Shown here piece after piece: positions 2,698 to 24,000 of a stretch of DNA of 24,000 bases. The notes beneath the pieces are model-generated. The model did no database searches. It saw nothing but the letters and a program-made list of their open reading frames with translations, and was not told the DNA's origin. The position numbers and the translations under genes were made by a program. The DNA is taken from the NCBI RefSeq assembly GCF_016427555.1, contig NZ_JAELVS010000003.1, positions 64,550-88,549 on the forward strand. Reading direction: 5' to 3'. The DNA comes from Marinobacter litoralis (GTDB lineage Bacteria > Pseudomonadota > Gammaproteobacteria > Pseudomonadales > Oleiphilaceae). Position 1 is the first letter of the stretch. Each line of letters opens with the position of its first letter.

Positions 2698-2715
2698 ACA
2701 CAAAACAACGATCTG

Positions 2716-7593: not shown

Positions 7594-7616
7594 CAAAAAA
7601 TATTGAAAACAACAAG

Positions 7617-7645
7617 TTGACATCACTATGAGATCAATCTATCTT
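7617..7645 (+). promoter_or_regulatory. sigma70-type promoter pointing rightward
   Basis: TTGACA (7617-7622), a 17-nt spacer, then TATCTT (7640-7645). An A-rich UP-like tract (CCAAAAAATATTGAAAACAACAAG) lies immediately upstream. Confidence 0.5.
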
Positions 7646-8225
7646 GGATTTGAATGGCACCGGTAAGCGGATGTCGAACTGCCAGCTGAGCAGGCCTAAA
7701 CGGCGAAACAGCAGCAATAAAGGCGAAACCGTTAGTCCTCACATCGCCTCTGCAATTCAGTCGGGAGTCTAATCTCCCAAACACTCAAGATTGAGTGAAT
7801 CTTCACGAAAATTATCCAACCATCAGTGACCTTTCCAGGTCGTGGGAATCTTTTTTCTAAAAACAGACTCCCCAGAGACGCTTTTTTGTTTTAACGACAA
7901 AACTGCCCACTTTCAAATGCTTATCCTAAAAATTCTGGAGACTTTTCGGACGAAAATGGACGAAAAACCAGACTGATAAGCCGGGATCCACTTTCAGTCA
8001 GTGAAGTGCCTGCAAACGCAGGGGCGTCGGAGCTTTCATAACCCTAGAGCTATGACGGCATTGCATCACCCCAGCCACACGCCATGATCATCCCCAACAT
8101 TCAGAATTCCCGCTGACGGCTATGCCGGCCGCATGAGTGCGGCGGACGCACTCCAACACTAAACATTGAATCATTACCACGGGGCTGCCGGCATATTTTT
8201 AAGCTATTTCATGAAGGGACCATCT

Positions 8226-9143
8226 ATGAGTTGTCGTAAAAAATCTTTGATCGCGAGAGCAAGACACAGCCTCAGACCGCTTGTCGCGGATGGAACGCTT
8301 TCTTATTCATCTTATGGATCCATCGTGGATAGATGGCTTGTGTTCGTGAATTTCCTGGTCGCACGAGAAGAAATACCTAAAGTGGAGGAAATCTCTAAAG
8401 ACTTGGTCATCGAATTTTCCAAAAGCCTGGCGGATACCCAGCCGTCTTATGCCCAAAACGTGATTTCATCAATAAACACCGTAATGAAAGCCCTTACCGA
8501 CGGTGACTGGGTCACTGTAAGTCCAGTCCGCGATTGCCTGATAGCACGCAGATGTAACGTCAGGACAACGCAACCGTCAGGAATGGACGATCACCAAATC
8601 AATAAAGCTCTAAAGCAACTGGAGAATGCGCACCTCTCCAGGGGGAGAGTTGTCGCTTTGGCCGCCAAAACGTTTGGCCTTAGGGTGAAAGAAGCAACCC
8701 TTTTGGATTACAAACAATCACTTCAACAGGCGCTATCAGATGGATATATAGATATCCGATTGGGAACAAAAGGAGGCCGTCCGCGACGTATCCCCATCAC
8801 TGCTCCGGACGAACAAATACCTGCTCTACGGTCCGGCGCCAAAATTCAGGGAGACCATTTCTCATTGATTCCGCCTGACATGACTTGGAAAAAATTCCGG
8901 GAAAATGAAATTGTGAAAACCCGGGCAGTACTCAAGTCCAACGGAATAGCCTCCATTAGAGACCTACGGGCTGCCTACGCCTGCCAGCGATATCAAAATG
9001 AGACTGGCAAACCAGCCCCTGTAATGGGTGGCCGAGCCACGAAAGAAGCCGATGAAAAGGCCCGGACAATCATTGCAGAAGAGCTTGGCCATAATCGCAC
9101 CAATGTCACAAATTCATACCTAGGTAAGAGCCATGCCAAATAA
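8226..9143 (+). CDS. tyrosine recombinase / phage-integrase-family protein
   Basis: Candidate catalytic residues are R in FGLRVKEA, K in GTKGGRPRRIP, R in IRDLRAAYA, and H-x-R...Y in LGHNRTNVTNSYLG. The N-terminal region has SAM/core-binding-like helices (SYAQNVISSINTVMKAL). The start is uncertain. ATG 8226 follows GAAGGGA; ATG 8211 and the TTG 8166 of the ORF track are alternatives. Confidence 0.65.
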   Translation: MSCRKKSLIARARHSLRPLVADGTLSYSSYGSIVDRWLVFVNFLVAREEIPKVEEISKDLVIEFSKSLADTQPSYAQNVISSINTVMKALTDGDWVTVSPVRDCLIARRCNVRTTQPSGMDDHQINKALKQLENAHLSRGRVVALAAKTFGLRVKEATLLDYKQSLQQALSDGYIDIRLGTKGGRPRRIPITAPDEQIPALRSGAKIQGDHFSLIPPDMTWKKFRENEIVKTRAVLKSNGIASIRDLRAAYACQRYQNETGKPAPVMGGRATKEADEKARTIIAEELGHNRTNVTNSYLGKSHAK

Positions 9144-9444
9144 ATCGAACAGCAGCAGGATCTTTTATATACGGTTAGCGAACTACGGCAAAAAAGGAGG
9201 AAAAAACCGAGCAAAAAAGAAAAAACAGATAGAGCTGGTTATTAAACACTGCGGGTGCAAGCCTGCCCAAATTGGAAAAAAACAGGTCAAAGCTTTCTTC
9301 CGAGCAAAAAACTACAAACCGAGCACGGAGAGAGACTACTACTATGCGCTCTGTGATTTTTGGGTACTGCTCGATCGCACTTCGAAACCTCCTAAACCTC
9401 CCGCCATCACCGCGCTCAATAAAGGCGGGGGCAATCTTGGGTAG
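9133..9444 (+). CDS. small basic protein, possibly an integrase N-terminal (SAM-like) domain remnant, 103 aa
   Basis: The ATG overlaps the recombinase stop by 11 nt (GCCATGCCAAATAA). It has a Lys-rich N-terminus. The segment GKKQVKAFFRAKNYKPSTERDYYYALCDFWVLLDRTSKPPKPP resembles phage-integrase N-terminal domains. This is a weak call. Confidence 0.35.
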   Translation: MPNKSNSSRIFYIRLANYGKKGGKNRAKKKKQIELVIKHCGCKPAQIGKKQVKAFFRAKNYKPSTERDYYYALCDFWVLLDRTSKPPKPPAITALNKGGGNLG

Positions 9445-9552
9445 CTAAAATCCCAATATTCTCTCTTGCCAGTGTCATGAAGCTTGAGCCCATTGTGAGT
9501 TTCAGGGGGCTCTAAACCCGCTTCCGGCGCTAAGATTTAGGCGTAAAACCAA

Positions 9553-10173
9553 CTAAACTTCAGCGGTGTGATGGAACACCGGCCGGAATCCTCGCGAAAA
9601 GGTTTTTACTACTGTAGACGGTGTAAGAACCTCTACCGTTTCAGGCAACCTATCATGAACCGCCTTTCGGTATCCCGACGCATTCCAGGCGAGTAAACCA
9701 TTCTCAGAAATTGCATAGGCAGCGTTATCAATCAGAACCATTGTTCCATGCGGAAGATCCTGAAGTTGACCTTTCCAAGTAATTTTTCGGCTGTCTTCTA
9801 TACGCTCCTCGTGGAGCATCTCATCCAACTCCGCAGAACGCACATTGCGCGCTTCAGTCCAAGCACTTGCTGACTGCCAGGCATCGCGGAACTCGTTATA
9901 ACGTTTTCGCCGGCATTCGGCGCAAGGCCGATGGCCGGCAGCGAAAGCCGTGACCTCATCAAGGAAAAAGAGCTCCGTATACCGTCCTGGCGTCATTAGC
10001 TCACGCTTCCGACCTTTAAACTCGAGCAAACATGTAATCCATGCTTTGGTTTTAAACTGACGCGTTACCTCGCGCTTGCCATTGTGCAATACCCCGCGGT
10101 TGCCCATATACGTGCCCCTTGCAGAGCTTTCTTCAATAGTGCCTTGGGGATTAACCCGATTCTGTAATGGCAT
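9553..10173 (-). CDS. conserved hypothetical protein with a Cys/His motif, 206 aa
   Basis: GGGAGAG RBS lies 8 nt before the ATG, and the gene starts 19 nt after the SNF2 stop on the same strand. The segments MPLQNRVNPQGT...GNRGVLHN and YTELFFLDEVTAFAAGHRPCAECRR look like a conserved domain of unknown function. Confidence 0.6.
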   Translation of the reverse strand: MPLQNRVNPQGTIEESSARGTYMGNRGVLHNGKREVTRQFKTKAWITCLLEFKGRKRELMTPGRYTELFFLDEVTAFAAGHRPCAECRRKRYNEFRDAWQSASAWTEARNVRSAELDEMLHEERIEDSRKITWKGQLQDLPHGTMVLIDNAAYAISENGLLAWNASGYRKAVHDRLPETVEVLTPSTVVKTFSRGFRPVFHHTAEV

Positions 10174-10192
10174 CTAAATCTCTCCCTGAACC

Positions 10193-13100
10193 CTAAGTAC
10201 TTGCTACAACGTAATCGAACCATTCCCCGAGCAAAGCCTTCTCCTCATCCTGAAAGTCCCCTGCCGGAAAATTCAACTGTGCTTCAGGTGAAGCATTCCT
10301 GCTGAGCCGGAAATTCACAAACGGAAATCGGTTATTAAGCCTTAGCAACTTTAGCAGTTGATCCTTCCCTTTGAACGCACCGACGACATTCTCCGACAGG
10401 GCATCAATTGTGTCGCTTGAAAGCGGACTTAAGAGCTGTTCAATAGGGCCAGACATAGTTTGGAAACTCAACCAAGTCTGAGGCGCGCGACTGGCCGTTC
10501 TCTCGCGAGGCAAAGCTACTGGTAGTGGTCTCGGCCCAGACACATTTTTGGCATTAATCTCGTCAATGGTGAGGTCCTGGATGCCATGGAAAAGTCTGGC
10601 CTCTAGCTCGTCAGAAAACTTCTTAATGCTCTCGAGACCCATTCGAAATTCCTCTAAAGACAGCCACTGCATCGTCCCTCGCCGAACAAACAGAGGAAAA
10701 TTGACGCGGGTGCTGAGGTAGAAATGACTGTTACCCGAGTCCTCGTCGACCGCCACGCGAACTAATGGGTACGATTGGCTCAGTTCATCAATCAATGTTT
10801 TCAACTCAGTGAGGGCTATCTTTTCAAAATTCTCGCGATTAGCAATTGGCGACGCAAAACTCACTATGTAGGCTGTCTCAGGACTCAAAGCCGAAAACCG
10901 AGGTGAAAAACCAAGCGTTGCGAATATAGGCTGGTGCCGCCGGGATTGCCCTCGCTCAATGCGTGGATCAATGATGAACAAAAGCTTTGGTGATGTCTGG
11001 CTCGACCGAGCTTCGATGATTTTGTCGTTCAGCGGATCACAAGCACTTTCGAGATGCGCTCGGATGGTCTCTGCGATATCGGAAAAAGTATGGGTATCCT
11101 GCGGCTGGTAGCAGGAATCTAATGTTTCAGGCCGATCAAATCTTGCCGGATAAGGATCGACCACCTCTTCCTCAGAATGATCAATTGGTGTTCTGAAAAG
11201 CTGCCCCCAATCCTTGTTTGCGGTCGGACGATATTCAGAATCAAATTTCGTCTGTAGGCAGGCATCCATTCGTTCTTCCACCTGATGTTTTCGCTCAATG
11301 AAAGAAGCCACTTGATCCTCATCCACGGAACCCTCTAGGTAGGGGTAATGGATACCCAGATCGCCTTTGCCAGATTCCAGCCGTTTATTGACGCACCCGA
11401 ACAAACGGTCAATCCGCCCTACCCTCTGTTCGTTATCCCCCGGTGATCCCGCTATTCCATAGTGGTGCACCTGATGACAATTCATGTGCAGATTCACCCC
11501 TTCCTGGAATACCGAGGTAGAAACCAGAACGTTGGGGTAAAAGGGGCTGTTAAAACCCAGTATCAGGCGTTGGCGGGCGCTGTTATTTTCACCACTGGCG
11601 TACCAGGCTGGACTGGTCAAACCTTTTAAGCTTCGCCATTCCTTACGCCAATCTCCGACACCATGGTCAACAATTTTGTCGCAAAGTGCTTCGAAGGTTT
11701 CCAGGGCCGCGACAAAGTAGCGGAGTAACAAAGAGCCTTTGATTTTTTCCTGCCGAACGAAATCATAGAATCCTCGGTACCACTCCTGCACATTGGCAAT
11801 CCTTCCTTTGCGGCGATACTCTGCAAACCAGCTATACAACTCCACGATCACTGGGCTCGCATGTAAAAATCCGGCTCGAATATAGTTCCCGAAGTTTTCC
11901 GCAACGGGCTTACTTGTGTTTGCCCATCTAAGCATTTGCTCCTGAAGCTTGCCAGGAAGTTCATTGAAAACCAGTTTCCATACTGTAAACAGCTCCTGAG
12001 TGTAGGCTGTTTGCGGTGCTTCAGTTTTGCCCACGGCTTCTCGCAAATCGGCAGCACTGTTCCAACGGGAAAACCGTTCATAACGAGCAGCCACACCGTA
12101 GTTGGCCCGCGTACGCTCTGAATCCCCATAAAAGTAGCTGTATCCGCCTTTGAGGTAATCACTGGACGGCTCAAGAAACAGCGAGAACAGACTTTCATGT
12201 TTGGTAAAACGCCGCCGCACATTTACACAATCGGTCTGGCCACCAGCTGCGCCTTCCTTAACAACAAACAGCTGAGCAACCCTTGATGCCAGATAATCCT
12301 CTTCCATGCCGTCAGCGTCTTCGTCATCCGCATCTACTTCCGCGCTTTCATCCTGAACGTCACCCGTTCTTACGCTTTCTAAAAGCTGTTCAAATTCGTT
12401 GCGGGAAAAGCTTTTAAGCCTTGGCTGTCCGTGAGAGTCAAATGAGGACAAGCCCAATCCGGAAAGCAGCATTTCACCTAACATTTGGTCGTAACGCTCA
12501 TTTAAGCGCTGGGTTAATTCTCTGACCGAAGGAATGCGACGAACAAAAATCAGATGTTTAAGGTTGCTGAGTGGCAACTGGTATAAATCCGCCTTTTTAG
12601 GAACACACGCCTCAATCAACCGACCGTATTTTGGGTGCCCGGGAAATCGATCGAATGCCTTATAGAAACTGTCGGTAAGCCCCATGAGCAGATTGGTATC
12701 CGGAGCCGTCGAGTAATCGGTCTTGCCTTTATCACCATCAGACGTATCCCGGTCAGGATCCTGCCGCGAGGCCTCGTCTGTTATGAGATCTCGGCCAACG
12801 GACTCAAACCCTTCCAGATACCCGTACATCAGACTTTTGTTTTCATTTTTCTTGTTTAGTTCAGCTACCAGGCCTTTCTGGTAAAGGGCAAAAAAGCCTT
12901 CTGCCTCGGGTTTTCCATCAAATGTCGCCGGCATAGGCTTTTCATGTCGGTAATGCCGTTTACTGAAGAGCTTTCCATTGGCCTCCATAAGCCGCATCCG
13001 TCGCAGTCCATAGTTATTGAGCAGGTAACTGGCGCGATCAGCTTCACTTGTCCATCCGTCCCCGGAATCCAAGAAGTAACTGAAAATGCTGTTTACATCC

Positions 13101-13849
13101 GAAAGACGGGTATGACTGGGCGTTGCTGTCAGCAATAAAGCTCTTTGTGAGAGTGGATCGTGCTTGGTACCAAAAAACGCCCCGGCTGCAGCAACCCGCT
13201 GAGAGCCGCCGTGAATATTCCTAAGGTAATGGGCCTCGTCAACGATGATCAAGTCGAAGCCCTCAGGACCAAGAGCACTTTTGATGCTCTCGTGAATCTC
13301 TTGTGCTCTTTCTCCGGCGACTATGTCAGGGCTACGACCATCAGTGTCTTCGCCCCGTAGCAAGCCACTCAATGAATGAATCGTGGTGAGATAAAAATGG
13401 GAAACGCCCTGGCTCACTGCGGCATCTAGATCAGCTAATGACTTACAGATTTCTATGCTGGGAACGACACCTCCATCAACACTGTTCTTAACGGTGTGGT
13501 CGACAACCCGGTAGTGGGAACTCACCAAGTTGTTAAATTCCCGGCGCCAGTGCAGGCATAAATCCCTGTTGGGTGCCATCACCAAAACTCGGGCATCAGG
13601 TTTCCTCTTCCATAACAGCGCTGCAACCCCCAGCGCCTGGAAGGTCTTGCCCATACCTACTTCATCCGCCAGCAGAGCCACTTTCTGTTCCGCTAACACA
13701 TTCCATAAGTAGGCGACCCCTTCGGTCTGTTTAGCAGGCATAGATTGGCGGTCGTGCGCACTATAGCGCCAGTCTTTCTGGCCACGATTGAAGTTGATCC
13801 ACTCCGAGACCATGTCGGGACTTAACAGCCCCCAATCGGATACGCTCAT
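10193..13849 (-). CDS. SNF2-family (superfamily-2) helicase/translocase, 1218 aa
   Basis: Motif I is LLADEVGMGKTFQALG (nt 13643-13666), and Ia is LVMAPN. Motif II is IIVDEAHYLRN (DEAH at 13229-13240), and III is LLLTATPSHTR. Motif V is STSVFQEGVNLH, and VI is NEQRVGRIDRLFG. The ATG overlaps the PLD gene stop (ATGA). The last ~400 aa carry no recognisable motif. Confidence 0.9.
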   Translation of the reverse strand: MSVSDWGLLSPDMVSEWINFNRGQKDWRYSAHDRQSMPAKQTEGVAYLWNVLAEQKVALLADEVGMGKTFQALGVAALLWKRKPDARVLVMAPNRDLCLHWRREFNNLVSSHYRVVDHTVKNSVDGGVVPSIEICKSLADLDAAVSQGVSHFYLTTIHSLSGLLRGEDTDGRSPDIVAGERAQEIHESIKSALGPEGFDLIIVDEAHYLRNIHGGSQRVAAAGAFFGTKHDPLSQRALLLTATPSHTRLSDVNSIFSYFLDSGDGWTSEADRASYLLNNYGLRRMRLMEANGKLFSKRHYRHEKPMPATFDGKPEAEGFFALYQKGLVAELNKKNENKSLMYGYLEGFESVGRDLITDEASRQDPDRDTSDGDKGKTDYSTAPDTNLLMGLTDSFYKAFDRFPGHPKYGRLIEACVPKKADLYQLPLSNLKHLIFVRRIPSVRELTQRLNERYDQMLGEMLLSGLGLSSFDSHGQPRLKSFSRNEFEQLLESVRTGDVQDESAEVDADDEDADGMEEDYLASRVAQLFVVKEGAAGGQTDCVNVRRRFTKHESLFSLFLEPSSDYLKGGYSYFYGDSERTRANYGVAARYERFSRWNSAADLREAVGKTEAPQTAYTQELFTVWKLVFNELPGKLQEQMLRWANTSKPVAENFGNYIRAGFLHASPVIVELYSWFAEYRRKGRIANVQEWYRGFYDFVRQEKIKGSLLLRYFVAALETFEALCDKIVDHGVGDWRKEWRSLKGLTSPAWYASGENNSARQRLILGFNSPFYPNVLVSTSVFQEGVNLHMNCHQVHHYGIAGSPGDNEQRVGRIDRLFGCVNKRLESGKGDLGIHYPYLEGSVDEDQVASFIERKHQVEERMDACLQTKFDSEYRPTANKDWGQLFRTPIDHSEEEVVDPYPARFDRPETLDSCYQPQDTHTFSDIAETIRAHLESACDPLNDKIIEARSSQTSPKLLFIIDPRIERGQSRRHQPIFATLGFSPRFSALSPETAYIVSFASPIANRENFEKIALTELKTLIDELSQSYPLVRVAVDEDSGNSHFYLSTRVNFPLFVRRGTMQWLSLEEFRMGLESIKKFSDELEARLFHGIQDLTIDEINAKNVSGPRPLPVALPRERTASRAPQTWLSFQTMSGPIEQLLSPLSSDTIDALSENVVGAFKGKDQLLKLLRLNNRFPFVNFRLSRNASPEAQLNFPAGDFQDEEKALLGEWFDYVVAST

Positions 13850-15798
13850 TTTCCTTCCCTGTTAGAGCTACGGCGAAAGTATTCGTCGGTTAACCATGCG
13901 CGGTATTCTTCACTGACCGATGCCGGCAGCGCCGGTTCCGCAACAATCAAAGCTTCCCATCTTTGGAATGTTTTCTCAGATCCAGCACCGACTAACTCTG
14001 CCTGCTTTGAACGGGCCGTACTGCATAGCTGATTAACCTCCTGGGTAAGAAACCAGTTAAACAGAGTAGGCGCAGAGCTACTCTCAATGCGGTGCACCGT
14101 TTTTTCTACCAGCTCTTGGAGACACCCAGGACGAATGAACGCCCAATACTCCAGTTCTTTCTGATCCCGGCAACCAGCCAACAGCTCCTCATAGTGATGG
14201 CAAGCAGAGAACAGCCGAAAATAACTGATGTCAGCCGATTGATGTTCATGTTCGGAGACCACAGCGGCATCGTCTGAGACCAGAGCGTCAACCAACGCCC
14301 GCCCATCATCGTCCTCCTCGACGCGGTAGGCAGCAGCATCGGTAGGAGGTTCACCGCCGGATAGCACCAACGCATCCAGCAAGCCTCGTAGATCCTCATA
14401 CTGTTGAGCTCTTCGGAAGATCGGACGTGTTTCAATAATCAAACCTTTTGCGATCGCAACATCACCGCTGAGTACCTCATAATTGCGGTCTACTAAAAGC
14501 GGTTTCGTGGATGCTACCGGCAACTCCAGTTTCTGTAGTACGAAAACATCACCGTGAGAATCAACCACCCATTGAAGCTTCACTGAATGGGAAAGTCCGG
14601 GAAGTTCTAGCTCAAACTCACAATCAGGCTCCGACGTACCAACCCACACTCCCGAAATGTAAAAACGCTCGATTTGCCAGTCAAACACCACGCGCAGATC
14701 AAAAGGCGGGGGCTCCGGGACTCGAAGACTTTCCTGCTCCATTTGGTCTGGTGTCGCAAATAAAGCTTCAGACAACGGCAACACCTCACCCACATACTCC
14801 GCCAAAGGAGACTCATCAACGATAAGCAAACCTGCTTCTACGTTATGGATGGGATAGCCACCGTCTGGTATCAAATTGCTCCCAGGCTGAGTGAAATTCC
14901 AGGATCCAATCGCTAATCGATCCGGTGTTTTCCAAAGCTTTGCATGGGTCATAAAGCTTCGGTGATCACGTTTGGAGGGGCTCTGGTGCAAAGAGAGCAG
15001 CCCTTGCTCGTGCAACTTGGCCAAGCCCTGGTTCCATTCAGCGCGTAAATACTGATTCTCTACCCTGTCTGGTACCAGCTGAACCCGAAGGTCAGGAGCT
15101 ACTGCAAAACGCTGTAAGTTCCTCACGTACTTACTGATATCTCTTGAAAAATAAGGGGACCAAACGGCAAGTTCACTTGGTTTGCTATCAAAAAGACGAT
15201 TAAGAAAGGGTATCCCTGCCAGACTATGACAGAAGCTCACCCCCGGATCCTCCGTCTGACCCGGGATGGAAAAATCTTCAGGGAATCGTTCTTGAACGTT
15301 GGTAAACACTGGCTGAAAGAAACTTCTAACGGATTCCGCCATGCTCCGACTTGCCACCGGAACAAAGGAGAACAGCTCCTGATTTCTGCCCCAGCCATCC
15401 ACGGTCAGGTTTGCGCTCCCGGAACCAAGAGCAGAACCTTTGTCGCCCTGAAGATAGATAACCTTTGCGTGGAACAGACTGTGCTCAGAGAAAGAAATGT
15501 CTCCATTGGATGACAATCTTTCCGGTGAAACGCCATGAATTGGAATTGCGGTTCGTTTATTCTGATCTGGCTCGATGAATCGCTTGTCACAGAACACTCG
15601 AATATCGATACCCCGCTCGCTCAGTACCTGCTGCATCCCCTCATAGTCCATTCTAAGCTTTGGGGGATCCATCCCTAGAATGGTCGGTAAAAGGTAGGTT
15701 TCGATAAATTCGATGTTGATGACGAAACTGGTGAGCCAAACCCGCTGAAGCGTGCCTACTTCGTCAATCTGTTTTCGGAAAGTCGAGAGCAATTTCAA
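13846..15798 (-). CDS. phospholipase-D-family nuclease with two HKD motifs, 650 aa
   Basis: HKD 1 is HAKVIYLQGDKGSALGSGSANLT (nt 15403-15471). HKD 2 is HAKLWKTPDRLAIGSWNFT (nt 14890-14946). The TTG start (15796-15798) overlaps the upstream TGA (TTGA) and follows GGGGGTGA. The C-terminal ~300 aa are unassigned. Confidence 0.85.
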   Translation of the reverse strand: MKLLSTFRKQIDEVGTLQRVWLTSFVINIEFIETYLLPTILGMDPPKLRMDYEGMQQVLSERGIDIRVFCDKRFIEPDQNKRTAIPIHGVSPERLSSNGDISFSEHSLFHAKVIYLQGDKGSALGSGSANLTVDGWGRNQELFSFVPVASRSMAESVRSFFQPVFTNVQERFPEDFSIPGQTEDPGVSFCHSLAGIPFLNRLFDSKPSELAVWSPYFSRDISKYVRNLQRFAVAPDLRVQLVPDRVENQYLRAEWNQGLAKLHEQGLLSLHQSPSKRDHRSFMTHAKLWKTPDRLAIGSWNFTQPGSNLIPDGGYPIHNVEAGLLIVDESPLAEYVGEVLPLSEALFATPDQMEQESLRVPEPPPFDLRVVFDWQIERFYISGVWVGTSEPDCEFELELPGLSHSVKLQWVVDSHGDVFVLQKLELPVASTKPLLVDRNYEVLSGDVAIAKGLIIETRPIFRRAQQYEDLRGLLDALVLSGGEPPTDAAAYRVEEDDDGRALVDALVSDDAAVVSEHEHQSADISYFRLFSACHHYEELLAGCRDQKELEYWAFIRPGCLQELVEKTVHRIESSSAPTLFNWFLTQEVNQLCSTARSKQAELVGAGSEKTFQRWEALIVAEPALPASVSEEYRAWLTDEYFRRSSNREGK

Positions 15799-17240
15799 TG
15801 ATCACCCCCGTAGTAGCCGCTGACCAGGAAATTAAACTGATGCAAATAGTAAGAATTCACCCAAGAACCAGGTGGGCGGTCACCTGCAACCGGTAACGAT
15901 GCCGTTCGGCCATGGTTATGAACTTCCCCGCTCCGCGCCAGCTCGACCCAGCGTAATTGGCCCCGCTGCTTCATGACGGTCGCATGGTAATCCAGTAAAG
16001 CGACAAGCTGTTCTTCTACGGTATTCAAGCGGGCAATTTGAAGTATTTTTTCCAAACGCTTTCGGCCTGTTTCTTGAAGAGGAACCCGAATTTCAGGGTG
16101 GTCAACGATTGTCTCAGCGTAACTTTGTAGCGTGGTTTCGGAACGACCGAGCCGCTGCCAGTGATCCCGAATTTCTGCCACGGCCTGAACCTTCTTGTGT
16201 CGGGCAACTCGAAAGAGCAAATCTACTTCAGCAAGCAAAGGTTCAATACGCTGGATGTTCTGAAGTTTCTGGCGTTCAGCGGTTTCACCATCAAAGGTCT
16301 TAACCGCCTCTTCAACAATGGACTGAGGGTTCAGTTTCTCCGGTGCAACATCATTGGCTTTGAACTGACTGAGCTTTTTTTTCATAACATTTAGAAGTTC
16401 ACCAGCAGATCCCTCGTTCAGTCCCGTCGCTGAAAGCCAGAAGTCCCGTGTTTCCGAGCCGACCTTGGCACCAGTAATGAAAGCCGTGCGGTAAGCGTTC
16501 TTTAGAACTGGCGAAATCTCCAGGAAATTAATCCTGGGAGGCACTTGGGACTTGGCCTGCGCTGAGTGAACAAGATTTACCAAGTGCCTTCTGACCTCTG
16601 TGAAGCAATAACGCAGTGAATCACTACTTGATAGCAGCTTCTCAAACTCAGCCCAGCGCTCTTGAGCCGTAGGATCAATATAGCGGTAGTTCTGATCGAA
16701 GAACCCTATCTCTACAAACGGTGTTTTGTAACGACCGCTCACTCCCAAGCCCAGCTGGCGAACTAACAATTGGCCTGAAGGTTTATCCGTAAAAATCAGC
16801 TGGTGATCCCCTTTGCTCTCCTGCTCTTCCAAAACGGCGCGACCTTTACTACCACCCAAGATACCGAGCGTATCGATACCCGCGTCCTCTGGTCGATGAA
16901 CCATTGAGTAGGTAAAGATATTCTCCAGATGTATCAGGCAGGCATGAATAAATGGCAGGCTATCTTTCGGCCCCAGCTCATTGGCAAGTGCATCGGACAC
17001 CTGAACTTCTTCATCGAGAAGTATCGAGCGAATCACACCATGATGCAGCAAGTTGAGCGTAAAATTTCGGACATCATTTGAGACGGAGTTTACGCGGTTT
17101 CGGAAGACCTGTTGGCCATAAGCCGACCAGATAACCAGCTGGCCGAGCGGGTCGATAAACGAATCACCAGACAAGGAGTCATCGTATTCGGTAAGCATAT
17201 CCTTAAGCTTCATAAGACAGTCCAATCCTTGGAGAAACAA
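15795..17240 (-). CDS. hypothetical protein, no family recognised (up to 481 aa)
   Basis: Long ORF with coding-like composition, flanked without gaps by the GIY-YIG gene (stop 17241-17243) and the PLD gene (4-nt overlap). The start is uncertain. TTG 17238-17240 abuts the upstream stop; ATG 17211-17213 is the alternative. Confidence 0.6.
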   Translation of the reverse strand: MFLQGLDCLMKLKDMLTEYDDSLSGDSFIDPLGQLVIWSAYGQQVFRNRVNSVSNDVRNFTLNLLHHGVIRSILLDEEVQVSDALANELGPKDSLPFIHACLIHLENIFTYSMVHRPEDAGIDTLGILGGSKGRAVLEEQESKGDHQLIFTDKPSGQLLVRQLGLGVSGRYKTPFVEIGFFDQNYRYIDPTAQERWAEFEKLLSSSDSLRYCFTEVRRHLVNLVHSAQAKSQVPPRINFLEISPVLKNAYRTAFITGAKVGSETRDFWLSATGLNEGSAGELLNVMKKKLSQFKANDVAPEKLNPQSIVEEAVKTFDGETAERQKLQNIQRIEPLLAEVDLLFRVARHKKVQAVAEIRDHWQRLGRSETTLQSYAETIVDHPEIRVPLQETGRKRLEKILQIARLNTVEEQLVALLDYHATVMKQRGQLRWVELARSGEVHNHGRTASLPVAGDRPPGSWVNSYYLHQFNFLVSGYYGGDH

Positions 17241-18155
17241 TCACGTTAAAGCTTCCGGCTCCAGCTTCTCAGCCTCCCAAGCCTTATACGTTTTCCCTTC
17301 CGGTAATCGCCATTCAGTGGTGCCATTGGTTGGACGGCCATTCACCACTGCCGCTGCAGCACTTGGGCTTTTAAACGCGTAGTTCTCGGTAAACACAGCA
17401 AGCTCTCCCTCTGGGCGTATGACACCCGCTGCCACCAGCTCACCATGCAGCTTACTGTAGCCAGTGTGGTGAGTGCTCTTACCTCGCCATCTGGGACTGA
17501 CTTTGGAGCCCGTGAGAACCACAAATTCCCCATCCGTGAGCACAGCTTTGGCCTCGATAGCATGCTTGGGGGTTCGAAGTTCAAACACTGTATCCGGCTC
17601 ATCTGGGTCAGCAGAGGAAACTGAACCTGTTTTTGCCTGCGGTCGAGTCTGAGCAAGAAAACTGTCGATACGTATGGCGGGCAGCACCATCATAAGGTAC
17701 TCAAGAAAGCTCTCCATATTGGCCTGCGCAGCCTCACTCAGCGAGGAGCGCGGGGGTGTATTGCCATTGTCTAGTCGGATTTTGCCAGCCCGTCGAGCCT
17801 CTTCAACCAGCCTGGATTCCAGATACTTTGCATGTGCCTTATTAAGGTTATTCCCGGCAGTCGTTATAAGAACCGCAGTGGTCCACCAATCCTTGGACGT
17901 GTCATGGCTTTTAATCCGCCCGCCGATATCCTCACCCTCCCCGATGTAAGCCAACGGACCGTCATCATCTTCGCCAAACAACAAATATACGCCAGTGTAG
18001 CTGGCTTCCGGCCTCTTCAAGGCGGCTCCCAGGCGCGTGCGCGGAGCCATGAGCACATGACCCGTCCAGTTAAACACCTCGGCTGTCAGCATGCCGTCGG
18101 GTTTTCCATCGATGAAGAATAGTTCGAGAGACTGCCCTTTATTGTTAATCATCAT
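17241..18155 (-). CDS. GIY-YIG nuclease family protein with C-terminal DUF4357-like domain, 304 aa
   Basis: GIY-YIG core is GVYLLFGEDDDGPLAYIGEGEDIGGRIKSH followed by AKYLESRLV. The C-terminal FVVLTGSKVS...FTENYAFKSPSAAAAVVNGRPTNGTTEWR matches the DUF4357 pattern, which occurs in restriction-modification (R-M) and defence neighbourhoods. Confidence 0.8.
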   Translation of the reverse strand: MMINNKGQSLELFFIDGKPDGMLTAEVFNWTGHVLMAPRTRLGAALKRPEASYTGVYLLFGEDDDGPLAYIGEGEDIGGRIKSHDTSKDWWTTAVLITTAGNNLNKAHAKYLESRLVEEARRAGKIRLDNGNTPPRSSLSEAAQANMESFLEYLMMVLPAIRIDSFLAQTRPQAKTGSVSSADPDEPDTVFELRTPKHAIEAKAVLTDGEFVVLTGSKVSPRWRGKSTHHTGYSKLHGELVAAGVIRPEGELAVFTENYAFKSPSAAAAVVNGRPTNGTTEWRLPEGKTYKAWEAEKLEPEALT

Positions 18156-18197
18156 TCTCTGCTATCGTTGATTCGACTTTTTACTGCTTTATCGTGT

Positions 18198-20039
18198 CTA
18201 CCTTCGGGTTTGAAACGCAAAGCTCCGCCGCCCAACCACTCGAAAATCTCGTGAGCCAGCAAGTTTCTGCTCGTACTCCACACCAGCTCCGTTCACTCGA
18301 AGGTACCGCTTTGTCTTGCAAGACTTACAATCTGTCGCAAAGCTACTGGGTTCTTGATGAACCAGCTTTACTGGACTTGAGCAAACCGGACATCGCTCAA
18401 GTACCATGATTTCCTGTTGTCTTCTGCCCAACTCCCTCACTTGAGAAGCTGCATTGTCATCGACAAGTGACCGCTCAACCCGTGAAAGATCACCCTCGCT
18501 CAGACCCTCTACAAGTCTAATTTCATGTCGTTTCGATTCTACTGCCAGGCCTTTAATTTCTCGCGCGATTCTTAGTGAATTGGCTGGGACTTTTAAGATC
18601 GGGCAACCGTATCCAGCCACCAGCTCCCTCTGTAAAAGCTGATCGATCAGATAACCAAATCTTTCGACGCTATACAGGTCGAACGGCGATAGCTGAATCC
18701 ATATGCCATCGATGGGAACTTCACTGGAATACAAGTGTTCGTCCGTCAATTTTGGCCAAGCCACTACTCTAGACAAAGGGTGATCGAAATTCTGCTCCGC
18801 AGAAAGTTCGTTTGGACGTTCGCCCAACTCCAACCAAGGAACAACTTCCAAGAGAATTTTTTCTGTTCTGCTTGAGTCATCGGGAGATAAAATCAACTGC
18901 CAGTCGAGCCCTACCTGTCTCAGCTCAAGATTCAGCCCGGCCCAACGCGATGAAAACTCAGTTCTGAGATAAGGTGCCAAAGCATGACGAAGAACCAGAC
19001 CGGCGTATCTCGAATACGTTAGGTTCAGCGCTTCGTTTCGCGCGCATCGTTCCTCAGGCGTCGTCTGTTTACCGCCAACGACACTCCGTAACTCATTCCA
19101 AAGGACAGGTAAATGGCGGTAATGCTGATCATGGCTCAGGATATTCGTAAGATGCAGTCCGTCTCCGATATTTACGCCGCGGTTCACCAACAGGTACAAA
19201 CCTCTCTGCTTGAGACCTCGAACTATACCAAGCGCATTCTCTAGCTGTTCCAGCGTTTCGGCTAGCTGTTCGGACGCTTTATTGGTTGAATCCTGAGTAA
19301 AGGCTTTTCCCCAAAGCCTGCATATTTCGTCAGTCAGGCGATGATGAAGCTCATTAGTTCCGTAAAACTCCAACGCCTCATTAACGGCAGACTGGATCTG
19401 CTTTAGCGTGCCGACTCGTTTGCACAAATATTGCTCGATTTTGTCAAGCAACCTTGCGTACACACGATTTTCATAGATATTAAAGTCGTCCTCGCTAAAC
19501 CGGGCTTTCACTCTCTTGGGTATAACACCGGACAAGGTCTGGCGCTGCCAGCACTCAGAATGCGAGGCCAGATGCACCAAGGCTCCTTTAGCTAACTTCT
19601 TGGCCCTCGCGACATCCGTGACCTCTTCTTCGTAGTGCAGGTCCAACCTAGGTCTCATCGATATTTGATGAAGGTGCCCCGCTCCGATGGTCTCGATCAG
19701 TTTCAAATCAAATGAGTTTAGGTGACTATCTTCGTTAACCACACCCTCAGGCATTAATGGTGATGCCAGCCCATTTCCACTCTCGATGCTTGAATCTATC
19801 GTATCCAGGATGCGCTCGAATAAATCGGCTTTCTGGACGATTGCCTTATCCGGCAACCTAAAGGATTTTCGCTCGCCATCGACATTGGCAATTTCGCTCC
19901 CATCGTCAACCAAGAGACCGCTCGTTCCCACACCTAAAGATTTTGGATGTCCAGCCGTTGCCTCAGCTAAATAACGGCCGGACTCGACAACGTCAGGTAA
20001 ACGCTCGATAGCCTTCCCAGTCAGCCGATCCACCCACAT
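18198..20039 (-). CDS. McrC-like (DUF2357-type) partner protein with C-terminal zinc ribbon, 613 aa
   Basis: The ATG overlaps the McrB-like gene stop (TAATG). DFNIYENRVYARLL resembles the conserved ENR segment of McrC/DUF2357 proteins. A PD-(D/E)xK-like stretch SPDDSSRTEKILLEVVPW follows. The tail has CPVC-x17-CKSC. The assignment rests on position plus weak motifs. Confidence 0.55.
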   Translation of the reverse strand: MWVDRLTGKAIERLPDVVESGRYLAEATAGHPKSLGVGTSGLLVDDGSEIANVDGERKSFRLPDKAIVQKADLFERILDTIDSSIESGNGLASPLMPEGVVNEDSHLNSFDLKLIETIGAGHLHQISMRPRLDLHYEEEVTDVARAKKLAKGALVHLASHSECWQRQTLSGVIPKRVKARFSEDDFNIYENRVYARLLDKIEQYLCKRVGTLKQIQSAVNEALEFYGTNELHHRLTDEICRLWGKAFTQDSTNKASEQLAETLEQLENALGIVRGLKQRGLYLLVNRGVNIGDGLHLTNILSHDQHYRHLPVLWNELRSVVGGKQTTPEERCARNEALNLTYSRYAGLVLRHALAPYLRTEFSSRWAGLNLELRQVGLDWQLILSPDDSSRTEKILLEVVPWLELGERPNELSAEQNFDHPLSRVVAWPKLTDEHLYSSEVPIDGIWIQLSPFDLYSVERFGYLIDQLLQRELVAGYGCPILKVPANSLRIAREIKGLAVESKRHEIRLVEGLSEGDLSRVERSLVDDNAASQVRELGRRQQEIMVLERCPVCSSPVKLVHQEPSSFATDCKSCKTKRYLRVNGAGVEYEQKLAGSRDFRVVGRRSFAFQTRR

Positions 20040-22498
20040 TAAAACCCGCCCTCTTTCCTTTTGATGTCTTTCTCCAAAAGATCAAGTGAGGTCACTGGAA
20101 GACTATCCAGGCCCGTTCCGCTCCAGAACGCTTCCAATGAAGACATCAATTTTCGAACGGAATCCGCGCTTACATCGAAGCGACCTGTTACCTTACCCTG
20201 GCGCATTATTCTGCTCGCTAGCAGGTGATCCAGAGCCTCACCCCTGGTCGCCCCTGATGACATCATCACGGGGATAAACCTGAGCGCCTGCTTCTCAAAG
20301 CGGTTGCCCCACCCCAGACCAAAGTCAGTCTCAAGCTGTTTTGTAAAGTCGTTTTCGGTTAATTTACCTAGCAAATCTTTCACAGAGGCGGTGTGCTCCC
20401 CGCAGGCAGAATCGAAGGCTTTCTGAAGAGAACTGAATGAATAGCTCGCAGGTGGATATTCCTTGATACGGAAACTGTGATCCTGCTTCGGAAGTGTCAT
20501 CACATGTGACCGATCATAAGTCTTATCAGCTAGCTCATTAGTCGTCTCGTCATGATTTGCCGTGCCGATAAACCAAACGTTGTTCGGCACAAGAATCTGG
20601 CGCCCATCCCTCAGCATATTTGGTGCCCCGGGCAACTCTGTTTCAGAAAGGCTGATTAGTCGCTCGGCCGGATTATTTTTTTCAAGAGCGGACAAGAATT
20701 CTGCGAAATATTGCTCTGGTCGAGAGAGGTTCATCTCATCAAGCAAGATCACATTACAAGAGTCTTGCCAGCGAGGGGCCTGTGCCTTGTATAGAGCTTG
20801 CAAGCAGTCCTTCTCGTAGAAACGGCGCTCAAAGGCGTTGAAATGACCCAGCAAATCATCGCGATCTCTCCAGCCTGCCTGCACGGCTATGTCCTGACAG
20901 AACCCTCCCATGGCCTTAGCAAAGGCCTTCGCAAGGCTCGTTTTACCCGTGCCACTAATTCCTTGGAACACGTGTAACTGACTCATAGCCAAACCACCGA
21001 GAAGCAGCCTGATATCCTCAATCGGATAGAATAGCTCCACATTCTTTTCAGCTCGGGCAATACGGTGCTGAAGTTCTTCTGCAAAGGACTTCAAATCTGG
21101 CACATGCTCAAGTTCGATGCTGGCCTGGAAGGCTTTATCAGTGTCCATGATCGACATCGCAGGGAACGCTGTTTTGGCCTTTTGCGCATTGGTCAATTGA
21201 TCAATACGAGTTTCAAGATCATCAATGTGGACCGCTAACGTATTTTTGTGAGATTCGAGAACCCGCTTCTCCCGGGCAATGGCTTCAAGCTCCGTAGCAG
21301 CTACACGCTTCACGCTCAACTCTCGACGCGCTTCGTCAAGTTCCGGGCGCAGAGCGGCAATGTCTCGCTCCAAGTCTGAGACTTTATCCCGTAGATATTG
21401 ATTGTCTTGCTGCAACCCAGCGGTGTCTGAAGATTCCAGCTGTCTTTTCAGCTCGCGATTTTCAGCAGTCAATCTCTCTAAATTCTCAAGTATTTCTGCC
21501 GGAGAGCGCTCGCCCAGTGCAGTACCCAACTCCTGGAGGTCATGTAACCGTTCTTGTAGCGTCTGAACCTTTTCCCAAGCCTTCTCTCTCTGTGCAGATA
21601 CCTTCGCCAACTCGAGCGCAAACCCCTTTCGCTCAGCTTCCATTCCCTCAGCTATGCGATTTTCTAGCTCAGCTTGCTCTGTTTTGAGTTCTGACCAATC
21701 GCGGTCCAGCCTTGTTCTATCGCGACTTAGCTTTGCCTTTTCCTGGCTGAGCTCATGCTCTCTCGCATCAAGCGCGTCAATTCGCTGAGCTTCTGCGTCA
21801 GAACAGCTATGCCTGATTTCTGCCAGCTTTCGTGCAGCCTGCTTTATTTCCTCTCCAAGCGCGGTCTTCTGATCCTGTAGATCCTTCAGATCTGATTCTC
21901 GCTGCACAATCAGCTGACGCTGTTGCTCTTCCAGTTGCCGCAGTGCTTTCTCATTCTCCTCTGCAAATCCTGCCTCAGCATTCGCCTCTCTCTGCTTAAG
22001 CAATCGTTCGAGGCTCAAAAGATCATTTTTCTTGGTTGCTAACTCCTGCTCCAGCTCGTCTATGCCGGCAACTCGTTGCTCCAAGGCCTCACGGTCTGCC
22101 TCAACCCGCTCAGCTTCGAGTTGCAGCCGTTTGTGTTCGGCATTGTTTTCTTCACCAAGCTTGCTGGCCTTCTCCCAACGTTGGATATATTCCTCGTTGA
22201 GCTTCTCCTGGTATTTGCTGAGCTCCTTACACACCTCTGCAAATCGCTCAATCCATCTCGCTATTGAGGCAGTGTCCTCAGTCTTCTGAAGCGCATCCAG
22301 GACCCGACCGATCAATTCTTTGTCGACGTCAATATCTAGGTTTGAACCAGTGGCTTGATAGACCTTTGATGCATTCTCAAACGAGGCTGCCCATATCGGA
22401 CCATGCTTTTCGAGTGACGCAGCCTGACGAGAAGGTGCAGCGGGAGCTCCTGTTGCCACCGGGGAGGCATTGCGTTTGTTTCCATTCTTCTTGGCCAT
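20039..22498 (-). CDS. McrB-like AAA+ (AAA_5/COG1401) NTPase with long N-terminal coiled coil, 819 aa
   Basis: Residues ~95-450 are E/K/R/L/Q-rich with almost no Pro or Gly, as expected for a coiled coil. P-loop is FQGISGTGKTSLAKAF (nt 20936-20962). Walker B is VILLDEMNLSRPEQYFAEFLSALE. FIGTANHDETTNELADKTYDRSHV sits at the McrB signature position. TAATG overlaps occur at both ends of the gene. Confidence 0.85.
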   Translation of the reverse strand: MAKKNGNKRNASPVATGAPAAPSRQAASLEKHGPIWAASFENASKVYQATGSNLDIDVDKELIGRVLDALQKTEDTASIARWIERFAEVCKELSKYQEKLNEEYIQRWEKASKLGEENNAEHKRLQLEAERVEADREALEQRVAGIDELEQELATKKNDLLSLERLLKQREANAEAGFAEENEKALRQLEEQQRQLIVQRESDLKDLQDQKTALGEEIKQAARKLAEIRHSCSDAEAQRIDALDAREHELSQEKAKLSRDRTRLDRDWSELKTEQAELENRIAEGMEAERKGFALELAKVSAQREKAWEKVQTLQERLHDLQELGTALGERSPAEILENLERLTAENRELKRQLESSDTAGLQQDNQYLRDKVSDLERDIAALRPELDEARRELSVKRVAATELEAIAREKRVLESHKNTLAVHIDDLETRIDQLTNAQKAKTAFPAMSIMDTDKAFQASIELEHVPDLKSFAEELQHRIARAEKNVELFYPIEDIRLLLGGLAMSQLHVFQGISGTGKTSLAKAFAKAMGGFCQDIAVQAGWRDRDDLLGHFNAFERRFYEKDCLQALYKAQAPRWQDSCNVILLDEMNLSRPEQYFAEFLSALEKNNPAERLISLSETELPGAPNMLRDGRQILVPNNVWFIGTANHDETTNELADKTYDRSHVMTLPKQDHSFRIKEYPPASYSFSSLQKAFDSACGEHTASVKDLLGKLTENDFTKQLETDFGLGWGNRFEKQALRFIPVMMSSGATRGEALDHLLASRIMRQGKVTGRFDVSADSVRKLMSSLEAFWSGTGLDSLPVTSLDLLEKDIKRKEGGF

Positions 22499-23988
22499 TA
22501 CATCCAGTCCTTAAAGCATTCCGTGAAATTCTTTGCATACGTCATCTGTTCTATCACCAGGTCCTGAGTAATCTCTTTCGACCTCCGTTTATTGAAACGA
22601 CTCTGTCCATGGCTACTCTGATTCCGAAGGTCAGCCAGATCTAACAACTGCATTAGCTGTAAGTCCGAATCTTGCAAAACCTTTAGCGGGTGCTGATCGT
22701 CGTTGAGTGCCCCCATTCCCGCGGCAAACAGTAAGGCTTTGAGAGAGCTTGATGGGTTGCGACACGATTTGATGACGTCATCTAAGCGCTGCCTCGCTAA
22801 TATTCGAATGACATCTTCGGTGAAAGATGGAATACCCAATGCGCCAAGCAACCCTTCATTCAGACTCCAGTTCGATTTCTTCGCGGATGGTATCTGCCCC
22901 ACATTCGCAGGGTAGGTCTTGATCAACCATTGCATAACCACTTCGAGAAGCTTCTGACAGTCACCGAGAGCAGCCTCCAAATCAGAATCCCAAGTCAGTC
23001 CCGATTCGATTCTGCGTCGCCACTTCAATATTCGGGCGAAATACCGCTTGATGTCGGGCTGAGCCTCTACCCAGGGGTACTCGATCAAAATATCCAGCTC
23101 CGTTCTCTTTTGAAGCTCTCTCAACCACTCTTCATTAGTCAGTGCCCCTGCGTCTGGAATACCAATCAGCGGCGCGAGAAAATTCCGAAGCTTAGTGTCT
23201 GAGTCCAGCAACTGCCTCACAGGCTCTTCGAGCCACCAGGCGCCTTCCCTGAGCCCAAACGGATCCCTTACTGACCAGAGCTCGTCCCCCTCATCATCAC
23301 CCGTTATCCAAACCACAATTCTCGCGGCCTCCGGTGAATCGTCCAGACGCTGAATGCCCTGCAATCGCACAGAATCAGATGACGAATGCAAGCCGTCCAT
23401 TTGCTGGCTGGCCCGAAAATCTTTCCGATAGTCACGGTAGGCCCGAGCGAGCCCCTCGTTATCTAAAGCAGGCAGGTTTTGCTTTTTTGATCTGGCGAGA
23501 TAGGGCCGGAAGGTGTGACCTGTCCGTCTCTCAACAGAAAACTCCGGAAACCTGGCTTGCGGATCCAGAGGCTCTATTTGTTCGAGCCTTGTTACCATTC
23601 GTGGCCAGAAATCACCGCTTATCGCGTCCTGAATCAGGAAGCCAGCCTTGAGATTCGACGACTCATCTTCCTCAGCGTCCAGCAGCTTGTGTCCTTCATC
23701 CGTCAGAGCATCCGCCCCCGTGGTCAACCAACCATGACTAATCCCTTGCGCAATAATCAGGGCGATCAATTCCGGGTGTAGACCAGTCAGAGCGGCAATA
23801 TCATCCTGTCTGGTGCATTTGGCCCTGATCAGTCCCAAAACCGCTCGCTGAAACAAATTCAACTCGGGCTGCCTTGGTTCAGGATAGAGAACTCGATGAA
23901 CAAGGACCGGCCAAAGAATCGCTTTCGATTTTGACCTGGGCCGATCGCTGAATTTGAGATAGCTGCCAGTTTCAACGAACGCTGCCAT
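22498..23988 (-). CDS. hypothetical protein with N-terminal wHTH-like segment and C-terminal R-x4-H (HEPN-like) motif, 496 aa
   Basis: ATG 23986-23988 is preceded by GGAGG plus a 5-nt spacer; the ORF-track GTG at 24000 is less likely. LNLFQRAVLGLIRAKCTRQDDIAALTGLHPELIALIIAQGISHGWL is wHTH-like. DLRNQSSHG (R-N-Q-S-S-H at nt 22609-22626) lies 42 aa from the C-terminus. Confidence 0.65.
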   Translation of the reverse strand: MAAFVETGSYLKFSDRPRSKSKAILWPVLVHRVLYPEPRQPELNLFQRAVLGLIRAKCTRQDDIAALTGLHPELIALIIAQGISHGWLTTGADALTDEGHKLLDAEEDESSNLKAGFLIQDAISGDFWPRMVTRLEQIEPLDPQARFPEFSVERRTGHTFRPYLARSKKQNLPALDNEGLARAYRDYRKDFRASQQMDGLHSSSDSVRLQGIQRLDDSPEAARIVVWITGDDEGDELWSVRDPFGLREGAWWLEEPVRQLLDSDTKLRNFLAPLIGIPDAGALTNEEWLRELQKRTELDILIEYPWVEAQPDIKRYFARILKWRRRIESGLTWDSDLEAALGDCQKLLEVVMQWLIKTYPANVGQIPSAKKSNWSLNEGLLGALGIPSFTEDVIRILARQRLDDVIKSCRNPSSSLKALLFAAGMGALNDDQHPLKVLQDSDLQLMQLLDLADLRNQSSHGQSRFNKRRSKEITQDLVIEQMTYAKNFTECFKDWM

Positions 23989-24000
23989 GGTCACCTCCAC

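Follow-up and report, generated by a model that had tools for sequence, protein, structure and literature searches.

Four anti-phage modules, among them the 3' part of a Type II CoCoNuT, probably make up an eight-gene array in a Marinobacter litoralis defence island

The genes considered here, eight minus-strand genes at 9553-23988 of a 24,000-nucleotide (nt) stretch of Marinobacter litoralis DNA (contig NZ_JAELVS010000003.1, positions 64,550 to 88,549; the whole stretch is called the window), are best approached from two described systems. Type II CoCoNuTs, as defined by Bell et al. (eLife 2024, PMC11090510), have seven genes, with no methyltransferase among them: a TerY-P triad, which is frequent but not part of the core, CnuH, CnuE with a winged helix-turn-helix (wHTH) and one RxxxxH HEPN domain, CnuB with a coiled coil and an NxD McrB-type GTPase, and a reduced CnuC with DUF2357, an inactivated PD-(D/E)xK nuclease and a zinc ribbon. 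The seven-gene Type II CoCoNuT of Pseudomonas aeruginosa ('Obs'), cloned alone, is reported to protect against PP7 and LeviOr01, which are RNA phages, and the DNA phage MPK7, i.e. this homologous set is sufficient on its own for defence (bioRxiv 10.64898/2026.04.06.716636). Azaca (ZacABC), the characterised system closest in architecture to three of the other genes, requires each of its three subunits, and an intact helicase Walker A motif, for cleavage of modified T4 DNA (bioRxiv 10.1101/2025.07.10.664194).

As judged from sequence, the array is very probably a set of four independent anti-phage modules lying head to tail in a defence island of M. litoralis. The modules are the 3' part of a CoCoNuT (g8-g6), PDC-S14 (g5), PDC-M27ABC (g4-g2) and PDC-S40 (g1), the genes being numbered in window coordinates from g1 (9553-10173) to g8 (22498-23988). 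The array would contribute new members of families already known or catalogued, not a new coupled machine. PADLOC divides g1, g2-g4 and g5 among three separate candidate entries and places g6-g8 in none of them; in its names we take S to mark a single-gene and M a multi-gene candidate. Family assignment, motif conservation, gene order, module independence and the absence of a methylase are directly supported by the data, and every biochemical step proposed below is inferred.

A first-pass annotation of the window had described eight minus-strand genes that overlap four times and are nowhere more than 42 nt apart, and the coordinates of the eight open reading frames (ORFs) agree (g1 to g8: 9553-10173, 10193-13849, 13846-15798, 15795-17240, 17241-18155, 18198-20039, 20039-22498 and 22498-23988). 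Read off these coordinates, the overlaps are 1 nt at g8/g7 and g7/g6 and 4 nt at g4/g3 and g3/g2, and the gaps are 42 nt at g6/g5, 19 nt at g2/g1 and 0 nt at g5/g4, the last becoming 27 nt with the ATG at 17213, a g4 start that is favoured by homologues and public gene calls and gives a protein of 472 residues. The further proposal that these genes are a unit of eight starting at 23988 does not hold. A public contig (L001), 100% identical to window 10039-24000, extends the locus 8.5 kb beyond 24000, and at least seven more genes precede g8, in the order PDC-S06, PDC-S11, an ORF of 85 residues, VWA, PP2C phosphatase, Ser/Thr kinase and superfamily 1 (SF1) helicase; all are co-directional, giving a defence run of at least 15 genes. 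The VWA, PP2C_2 and Pkinase genes occupy L001 2357-5125, and the kinase carries a CDGC...CFFC zinc ribbon. The UPF1-like SF1 helicase is cnuH (L001 5132-8527, 1131 residues), with a long N-terminal extension, AAA_11 and AAA_12 over residues 417-1101 and a PADLOC MkoA-like match at 2e-81. With its stop at window 23972 it shares 17 nt with the beginning of g8, such that the last nine or so codons and the stop (23972-24000, minus strand) are the only part of this gene left inside the window edge.

The resulting order of TerY-like VWA, PP2C, Ser/Thr kinase with zinc ribbon, CnuH, CnuE, CnuB and CnuC is the seven-gene one, and g8, g7 and g6 are assigned as CnuE, CnuB and CnuC, with which a Type II CoCoNuT, truncated by the window edge at 24000, comes to its end. 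The predicted RNase effector CnuE (g8, 22498-23988) has an elongated wHTH (Pfam wHTH-PRTase_assc, 5e-07) followed by one C-terminal HEPN domain, for which the Pfam match, HEPN_RiboL-PSP, is below threshold (E 0.009). It contains a single Rx4H motif, RNQSSH at 455-460, in which R, N and H occur in every listed variant among 51 aligned sequences, and the position of its homologues between cnuH and cnuB is kept in 53 loci. CnuB (g7, 20039-22498) combines a long N-terminal coiled coil with a McrB-like AAA+ GTPase of NxD signature. Residues from about 70 to 465 match only coiled-coil proteins (SMC, ASRP, LmuB, JetC), as judged by profile matches; the ATPase region matches AAA_5 in Pfam and, in PADLOC, PDC-M26A only in part. 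The Walker A motif GISGTGKT and the GTANHDE motif (645-651) are identical in 52/52 aligned sequences. Escherichia coli McrB (6hz4) is the best PDB match, at E 0.003, with NHD lying opposite NTAD of 6hz4, and the score against NCBIfam McrB is 16.9 bits, where the cutoff is 637.

The McrC homologue CnuC (g6, 18198-20039, 613 residues) begins with a small beta domain, followed by DUF2357, an alpha/beta region that has no catalytic motif and a C-terminal zinc ribbon. DUF2357 is matched at E 3e-4, below the Pfam cutoff, and PF09823 is precomputed for several homologues. The 15 homologues compared all keep C550, C553, C571 and C574 (CPVC...CKSC) and have no D...(D/E)xK in common. No PADLOC model matched g6, and no Hsp70-like, cold-shock or other domain was found in it. 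The AlphaFold2 (AF2) model is of moderate quality, with a mean pLDDT score (the predicted local distance difference test) of 68.5 and a beta-rich region at 360-450; compared with the PDB by Foldseek, this only moderate model gave no significant match (MspJI, E 0.8), and a CnuC profile matched no PDB sequence. Given the missing motifs, and given that the clade is described with an inactivated nuclease (PMC11090510), CnuC probably lacks a catalytic site, consistent with an inactive nuclease fold. Of the activities given in the first-pass annotation, the SNF2, PLD, McrB-like, HEPN-like and GIY-YIG assignments stand, those of HEPN and GIY-YIG on motifs together with sub-threshold Pfam matches, but the McrC-like nuclease does not, with its weak DUF2357 and no invariant D...(D/E)xK; of the four predicted nucleases, this one probably has no catalytic site.

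In its resemblance to the Type II CoCoNuTs and Obs, the locus has seven genes in identical order with overlapping frames, the NxD(E) GTPase motif and long coiled coil of CnuB, a single RxxxxH HEPN behind the wHTH of CnuE, and a short CnuC with DUF2357, a zinc ribbon and no catalytic PD-(D/E)xK motif. It differs from the published cases in that no RtcR-like regulator is present in the 8.5 kb read upstream, and its neighbours, PDC-S06 and PDC-S11 upstream and S14, M27 and S40 downstream, are unlike those pictured by Bell et al. (PMC11090510). Following the proposals of Bell et al. (2024), a TerY-P phospho-switch would gate a complex held together by the coiled coil, in which CnuE, the HEPN RNase, would be brought to RNA by the helicase CnuH and the GTPase CnuB, CnuC serving as an adaptor without catalytic activity, so that the phage would be restricted or the cell arrested.

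Canonical McrBC of E. coli likewise has a McrB-type AAA+ GTPase fold, a partner with the McrC N-terminal DUF2357, and no methylase. By contrast with it, g7 has NxD instead of NxxD and a coiled coil in place of the DNA-reading N-domain, g6 is without the McrC catalytic motif, and the two stand among genes for a helicase, a HEPN RNase and the triad of kinase, phosphatase and VWA protein, with RNA as the predicted target. Lacking NxxD, an N-terminal reader of modified DNA and a conserved active PD-(D/E)xK, the pair is not canonical McrBC. Mokosh type I shares with the locus a helicase core (CnuH and MkoA, 2e-81), the kinase (MkoA N terminus, 6e-12) and the N-terminal part of g8, for which PADLOC gives a weak match to the MkoB N terminus only (residues 10-146, 2.7e-5). 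However, the effector is HEPN and not PLD, the kinase is a separate gene, and a McrBC-like pair, VWA and PP2C are added; Mokosh was rejected, there being no PLD in g8.

Metagenomes searched with g6 as the anchor gave 80 CnuC loci, in which g7, g8, the SF1 helicase, kinase, PP2C and VWA lie upstream of CnuC in fixed order and spacing. All six, including the TerY-P triad, are present in 39 of the 41 loci with a full 10-kb flank, and CnuH is present in 54/80, a number limited solely by contig ends. M27 genes occur in none of the 80 loci, and in none of the 25-30 with 3-6 kb of downstream sequence. A different set of genes, four or five in number (about 340, 285, 375 and 245-290 residues), lies 1-4 kb downstream of cnuC, in either orientation, in 5-8 of the metagenome loci (L078, L084, L085, L086, L101, L110), and has no PADLOC match.

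The three genes g4-g2 match the PADLOC-DB v2.0.0 models PDC-M27A (7.3e-169), PDC-M27B (2.3e-215) and PDC-M27C (E 0, 1664 bits), and the matches span almost the entire models. M27A (g4, 15795-17213 from the favoured start, 472 residues) has no recognisable domain; no Pfam family was found in 40 members, and its AF2 model is all-helical (pLDDT 85.6) with no fold match in the PDB. M27B (g3, 13846-15798) is a PLD-family nuclease (PLDc_2, 8.6e-10) with two HxK...GSxN motifs that are kept in at least 90% of 70 sequences; a PDB sequence search gave one insignificant match (E 0.35). M27C (g2, 10193-13849, 1218 residues) is an SNF2-family ATPase with SNF2-rel_dom (6e-14), ResIII (5e-15) and Helicase_C matches in Pfam and GxGKT, DEAH, TATP and QRxGR motifs conserved in at least 90% of 68 sequences; its PDB relatives are Fft3, Rad54-like, ISWI, Ino80 and RapA. 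The three genes show no essential difference from the PADLOC entry. M27C occurs in a long form of about 1215 residues, which includes the window copy, in 14/74 loci and in a short form of about 905 residues in 60/74; the extra C-terminal 300 or so residues of the long form (window 10193-11100) match no domain and were not found as a separate gene in short-form loci. A literature search found no functional study of PDC-M27, PDC-S40 or PDC-M26.

M27ABC is predicted to be an autonomous, methylase-independent three-gene cassette. By analogy with Azaca, the SNF2 ATPase M27C may translocate on DNA and license the tandem-HKD PLD nuclease M27B, with the helical M27A as a scaffold or sensor. Both systems comprise a helical protein of no known kind, a PLD nuclease and a superfamily 2 helicase without a methyltransferase, and there is local hidden Markov model similarity of g3 to ZacB (6.5e-7, residues 109-163) and of g2 to ZacC (2e-24, residues 765-831). 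However, DUF6361 of ZacA is found in 0/40 M27A members (E up to 1) and the ZacB and ZacC matches are confined to short motif regions, so M27 is taken as a family separate from Azaca. DISARM also pairs an SNF2 ATPase (DrmD) with a PLD nuclease (DrmC), but neither DrmA/DrmB (the YprA helicase with DUF1998) nor a DrmMI/MII methylase is present in the window or L001; with DrmD at 73 bits and DrmC at 30 bits against NCBIfam cutoffs of 610 and 133, DISARM was rejected.

Genomes were scanned from the M27 side with M27C as the anchor, giving 74 loci, one per species, that span alpha-, beta- and gamma-proteobacteria, Bacteroidota, Spirochaetes, Thermodesulfobacteriota, Planctomycetes and others. The three genes are intact and in order in 67 of these, and the remainder are contig fragments. 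Neither g6, g7 nor g8 lies upstream in any of the 56 loci with at least 5.2 kb of upstream flank; g5 is present in one M27-anchored locus, a Marinobacter metagenome-assembled genome, and g1 in none. No flanking family recurs in more than seven loci, and there is no conserved fourth M27 gene or methylase partner: a DNA methyltransferase, usually hsdM, lies within 10 kb of about 8-10 of the 67 loci, with more than 85% having none. A divergent neighbour or an upstream gap of more than 100 nt precedes M27A in 54/64 loci, which points to an operon of its own. In some genomes M27 is in or beside a type I restriction-modification (R-M) locus (L014, L042 and L043; also L021, L046 and L071), hsdM being 1.5-2 kb upstream of the cassette and hsdR 40-290 nt downstream of it.

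The remaining two modules are single genes, neither of which has a match in PDB sequence searches. The g5 protein (17241-18155) matches PDC-S14 over residues 3-299 (PADLOC, 5.8e-119) and consists of a GIY-YIG nuclease domain, with GVY and YIG motifs present and a sub-threshold Pfam match (E 0.008), and a C-terminal DUF4357 (1.4e-17). Since reported fusions join DUF4357 to homologues of McrB and to type IV enzymes of the GmrSD kind, and the domain also occurs with GIY-YIG, S14 is most simply read as a stand-alone, modification-reading, type IV-like DNA nuclease. The small g1 protein (9553-10173), to which the first-pass annotation gave no activity, has one CxxC motif and matches the single-gene candidate PDC-S40 over residues 1-204 of 206 (PADLOC, 1.1e-81); Pfam and PDB searches gave no informative relative. 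S40 follows M27C only in the window and in one Marinobacter relative (L156), and is absent from 74 other M27 loci.

Comparison within Marinobacter argues for the same separation of modules. In L161 and L162, with g6 98% identical, the seven CoCoNuT genes and S14 are followed by a 33-codon remnant, of which some 27 codons are the start of M27A, and next by the UvrD-like helicase that is also present at window 4142-7069. By blastn, window 3281-7093 corresponds to L161 16809-12994 and window 17133-24000 to L161 12908-6040; the intervening segment, 7094-17132, which in the window holds small ORFs, an integrase-like pair, S40, M27C, M27B and all but about the first 27 codons of M27A, is missing from this closest CoCoNuT-bearing relative. 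The flanks on both sides are 88-92% identical, with about 70 nt of unrelated sequence at the joint. The M27A 5' remnant and this unrelated sequence point to a deletion or replacement, not to clean site-specific excision. The seven CoCoNuT genes are also present in Marinobacter sp. tcs-11 (L163) and in L076, where S14 is cut to its first 100 or so codons. Conversely, L156, the closest M27 relative (90%; 85% identical to window 7461-17383), has a 143-nt 3' remnant of S14, M27ABC, S40 and the integrase-like pair known from the window, and no CoCoNuT. In M. nauticus type III Mod/Res genes are followed by S14, M27ABC and an ADP-ribosylglycohydrolase gene, and in L002 a type I R-M system is followed by S14 and M27ABC. 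At L002 5694-8052, S14 is 88% identical to the window copy and the adjoining M27A 64%, a difference that indicates recombination between S14 and M27 even when they are adjacent. The breakpoints between relatives lie at or inside module borders, as is characteristic of defence islands with a turnover of cassettes. A pair of Integrase_1-family genes (about 305-325 and about 100 residues) lies at the edges of Marinobacter defence blocks (window 8166-9444, plus strand; L156 14411-15632; L163 16516-17713); it adjoins S40 and M27 in L156, where it travels with M27-S40, and may be the recombinase that moves the cassettes. In the window the pair encodes 325 and 103 residues (Pfam Integrase_1, 1.5e-09).

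Several observations weigh against four fully independent modules. The spacing at module borders (0-42 nt) is no wider than inside the modules, and no terminator-like sites occur there, such that shared transcription and some functional interplay are conceivable. S14 lies 27-37 nt upstream of M27A in four Marinobacter lineages, so the separation between these two may be less complete than that of either from the CoCoNuT. In four Pseudomonas genomes M27 is convergent to a distant CnuH-CnuE-CnuB-CnuC cassette, which hints at more than chance co-location. This cassette (L006, L007, L019, L025; about 150-720 nt downstream of M27C, on the opposite strand), with a CnuC of 1114 residues that has DUF2357 and a separate cold-shock domain and a CnuE of 646 residues, is probably a Type III-A CoCoNuT; two independent M27/CoCoNuT co-locations are too few to claim an association. 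The Type II assignment was made by the published definition, and the inactive-nuclease status of g6 derives from missing motifs and the literature, the fold search being uninformative.

The rival explanations differ in how much they make of this packing. At one extreme all eight, or all of the at least 15 co-directional, genes would act as an integrated system in which a McrBC-like sensor hands targets to an SNF2/PLD degrader, a coupling that the first-pass annotation, which knew of no description of the combination, had suggested as possible. The common direction, the gaps of at most 42 nt, the four overlaps and the lack of terminator-like sites at junctions are all as such a system would have them, but the expectation that the two modules travel together fails in the genome comparison: they do not co-occur (0/56 M27 and 0/25-30 CnuC loci), relatives carry one without the other and have breakpoints at or inside the module boundaries, M27 is kept alone in 67 species of several phyla, and the modules are independent in essentially all related genomes. 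Because of this independence, and because a seven-gene CoCoNuT is sufficient for defence in Pseudomonas (bioRxiv 10.64898/2026.04.06.716636), coupling is not supported and the integrated system is extremely improbable; nor is the combination new in its McrB/McrC-like part, this pair belonging to the described seven-gene CoCoNuT. A weaker form of linkage, which overlays the four-module reading and does not exclude it, is a superoperon of mechanistically independent modules that are transcribed together, in which S14 and M27 would strike DNA first and the RNA-targeting CoCoNuT would be an abortive back-up, in line with the echeloned defence proposed by Bell et al. for CoCoNuTs with ancillary restriction systems (PMC11090510). 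Superoperons that join Type II CoCoNuTs to co-directional restriction systems are on record, but in these the ancillary systems follow rtcR and are upstream of the CoCoNuT (PMC11090510), whereas here they lie downstream and no RtcR homologue is encoded in the 8.5 kb examined. The tight, uninterrupted spacing favours co-transcription, which is possible; sequence scans found no promoter- or terminator-like sites at module junctions, with fewer promoter-like sites than in shuffled sequences, although such scans are weak evidence. That in other Marinobacter the S14-M27 block also stands behind R-M operons of type I and type III that run in its direction, and M27 between hsdM and hsdR in a few genomes, fits as well, but the majority of M27 cassettes are preceded by an intergenic region of their own or by a divergent gene and the arrangement seen here is confined to one strain among the relatives sampled, so that this possibility is a tentative and on the whole unlikely one. 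The range of these contexts (a Type II CoCoNuT in the window, a type III R-M system in M. nauticus and one of type I in L002, with hsdM and hsdR on either side elsewhere) allows a more speculative variant, rather unlikely in our judgement, in which S14-M27ABC is a promoter-less 'rider' on the 3' ends of restriction-type operons, forming a strain-specific superoperon with them, co-expressed with and complementing them, and in which the Pseudomonas M27/CoCoNuT arrangement is a second non-random association. Were this so, restriction at the DNA level would be backed by abortive defence of the CoCoNuT at the RNA level.

The remaining rival concerns self-protection, namely that M27, its SNF2 and PLD proteins being reminiscent of DrmD and DrmC of DISARM, depends on a methyltransferase encoded elsewhere. 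The first-pass annotation had reported no DPPY/NPPY or FxGxG motif in the array and had offered two accounts, discrimination of self from non-self without modification or a protecting methylase beyond 24000. Its motif reading is borne out, there being no (D/N/S)PP(Y/F/W) or FxGxG motif in the eight array proteins or in the seven encoded upstream, and profile searches matched no methyltransferase family among the array proteins or the upstream genes. Neither the window nor the 8.5 kb past 24000 encodes a methylase; over that range the second account finds no support, and the first is favoured. The CoCoNuT genes are likewise described without one. A dependence on R-M would find some basis in the weak matches of g2 and g3 to DrmD and DrmC, in the R-M operons just upstream in M. 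nauticus and L002, and in the minority of M27 loci, about 8-10 of 67, with an R-M methylase, usually hsdM, within 10 kb; however, the Drm scores are far below their cutoffs, no YprA/DUF1998 helicase is present, the great majority of M27 loci have no nearby methylase, and Azaca, architecturally the closest characterised system, works without one (bioRxiv 10.1101/2025.07.10.664194). We therefore regard a hidden methyltransferase as very improbable, and the four-module reading, with M27 as an autonomous cassette, as the one that best accommodates the gene contexts.

Other genes of the island may be described briefly. At L001 1-2130 the two PADLOC single-gene candidates are PDC-S06, an AAA_13 ATPase (4e-157), and PDC-S11, a NucS_C/Shedu-like nuclease (6e-142). 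At window 4142-7069, on the minus strand, a UvrD-family helicase of 975 residues with two C-terminal Top1-type zinc ribbons marks the edge of the island and is conserved as such in four relatives from Marinobacter (L161, L162, L163, L076); its PADLOC matches are limited to the UvrD-helicase type (GajB models, RTasHel). An ADP-ribosylglycohydrolase gene occurs near M27 in three Marinobacter contexts (window 1448-2701, minus strand; L156 3619-4539; L157 13657-15081), and that of M. nauticus overlaps the M27C stop by 4 nt, the position taken by S40 in the window. The longest ORF of the window copy opens with four tandem PSQAK peptide repeats, which are probably upstream of the true start. At window 80-415, on the plus strand, an ORF of 111 residues matches only the C-terminal third of Tus (profile positions 196-283 of 296) and may be a fragment or frameshifted gene of this replication-terminus protein. 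Megablast of 9400-24000 against plasmids and E. coli genomes gave no match.

The analysis keeps a spurious 'new McrBC-helicase-nuclease system' out of the catalogue, and illustrates how the edge of a window can make a known seven-gene system look novel. PDC-M27 emerges as a target for functional work, being widespread, with conserved catalytic motifs and an M27A without a known fold relative. Within one genus the variants comprise CoCoNuT with S14, M27 and S40, CoCoNuT with S14, CoCoNuT only, M27 with S40, and R-M with S14 and M27; these natural variants of Marinobacter are material for testing whether adjoining defence modules act additively or synergistically.

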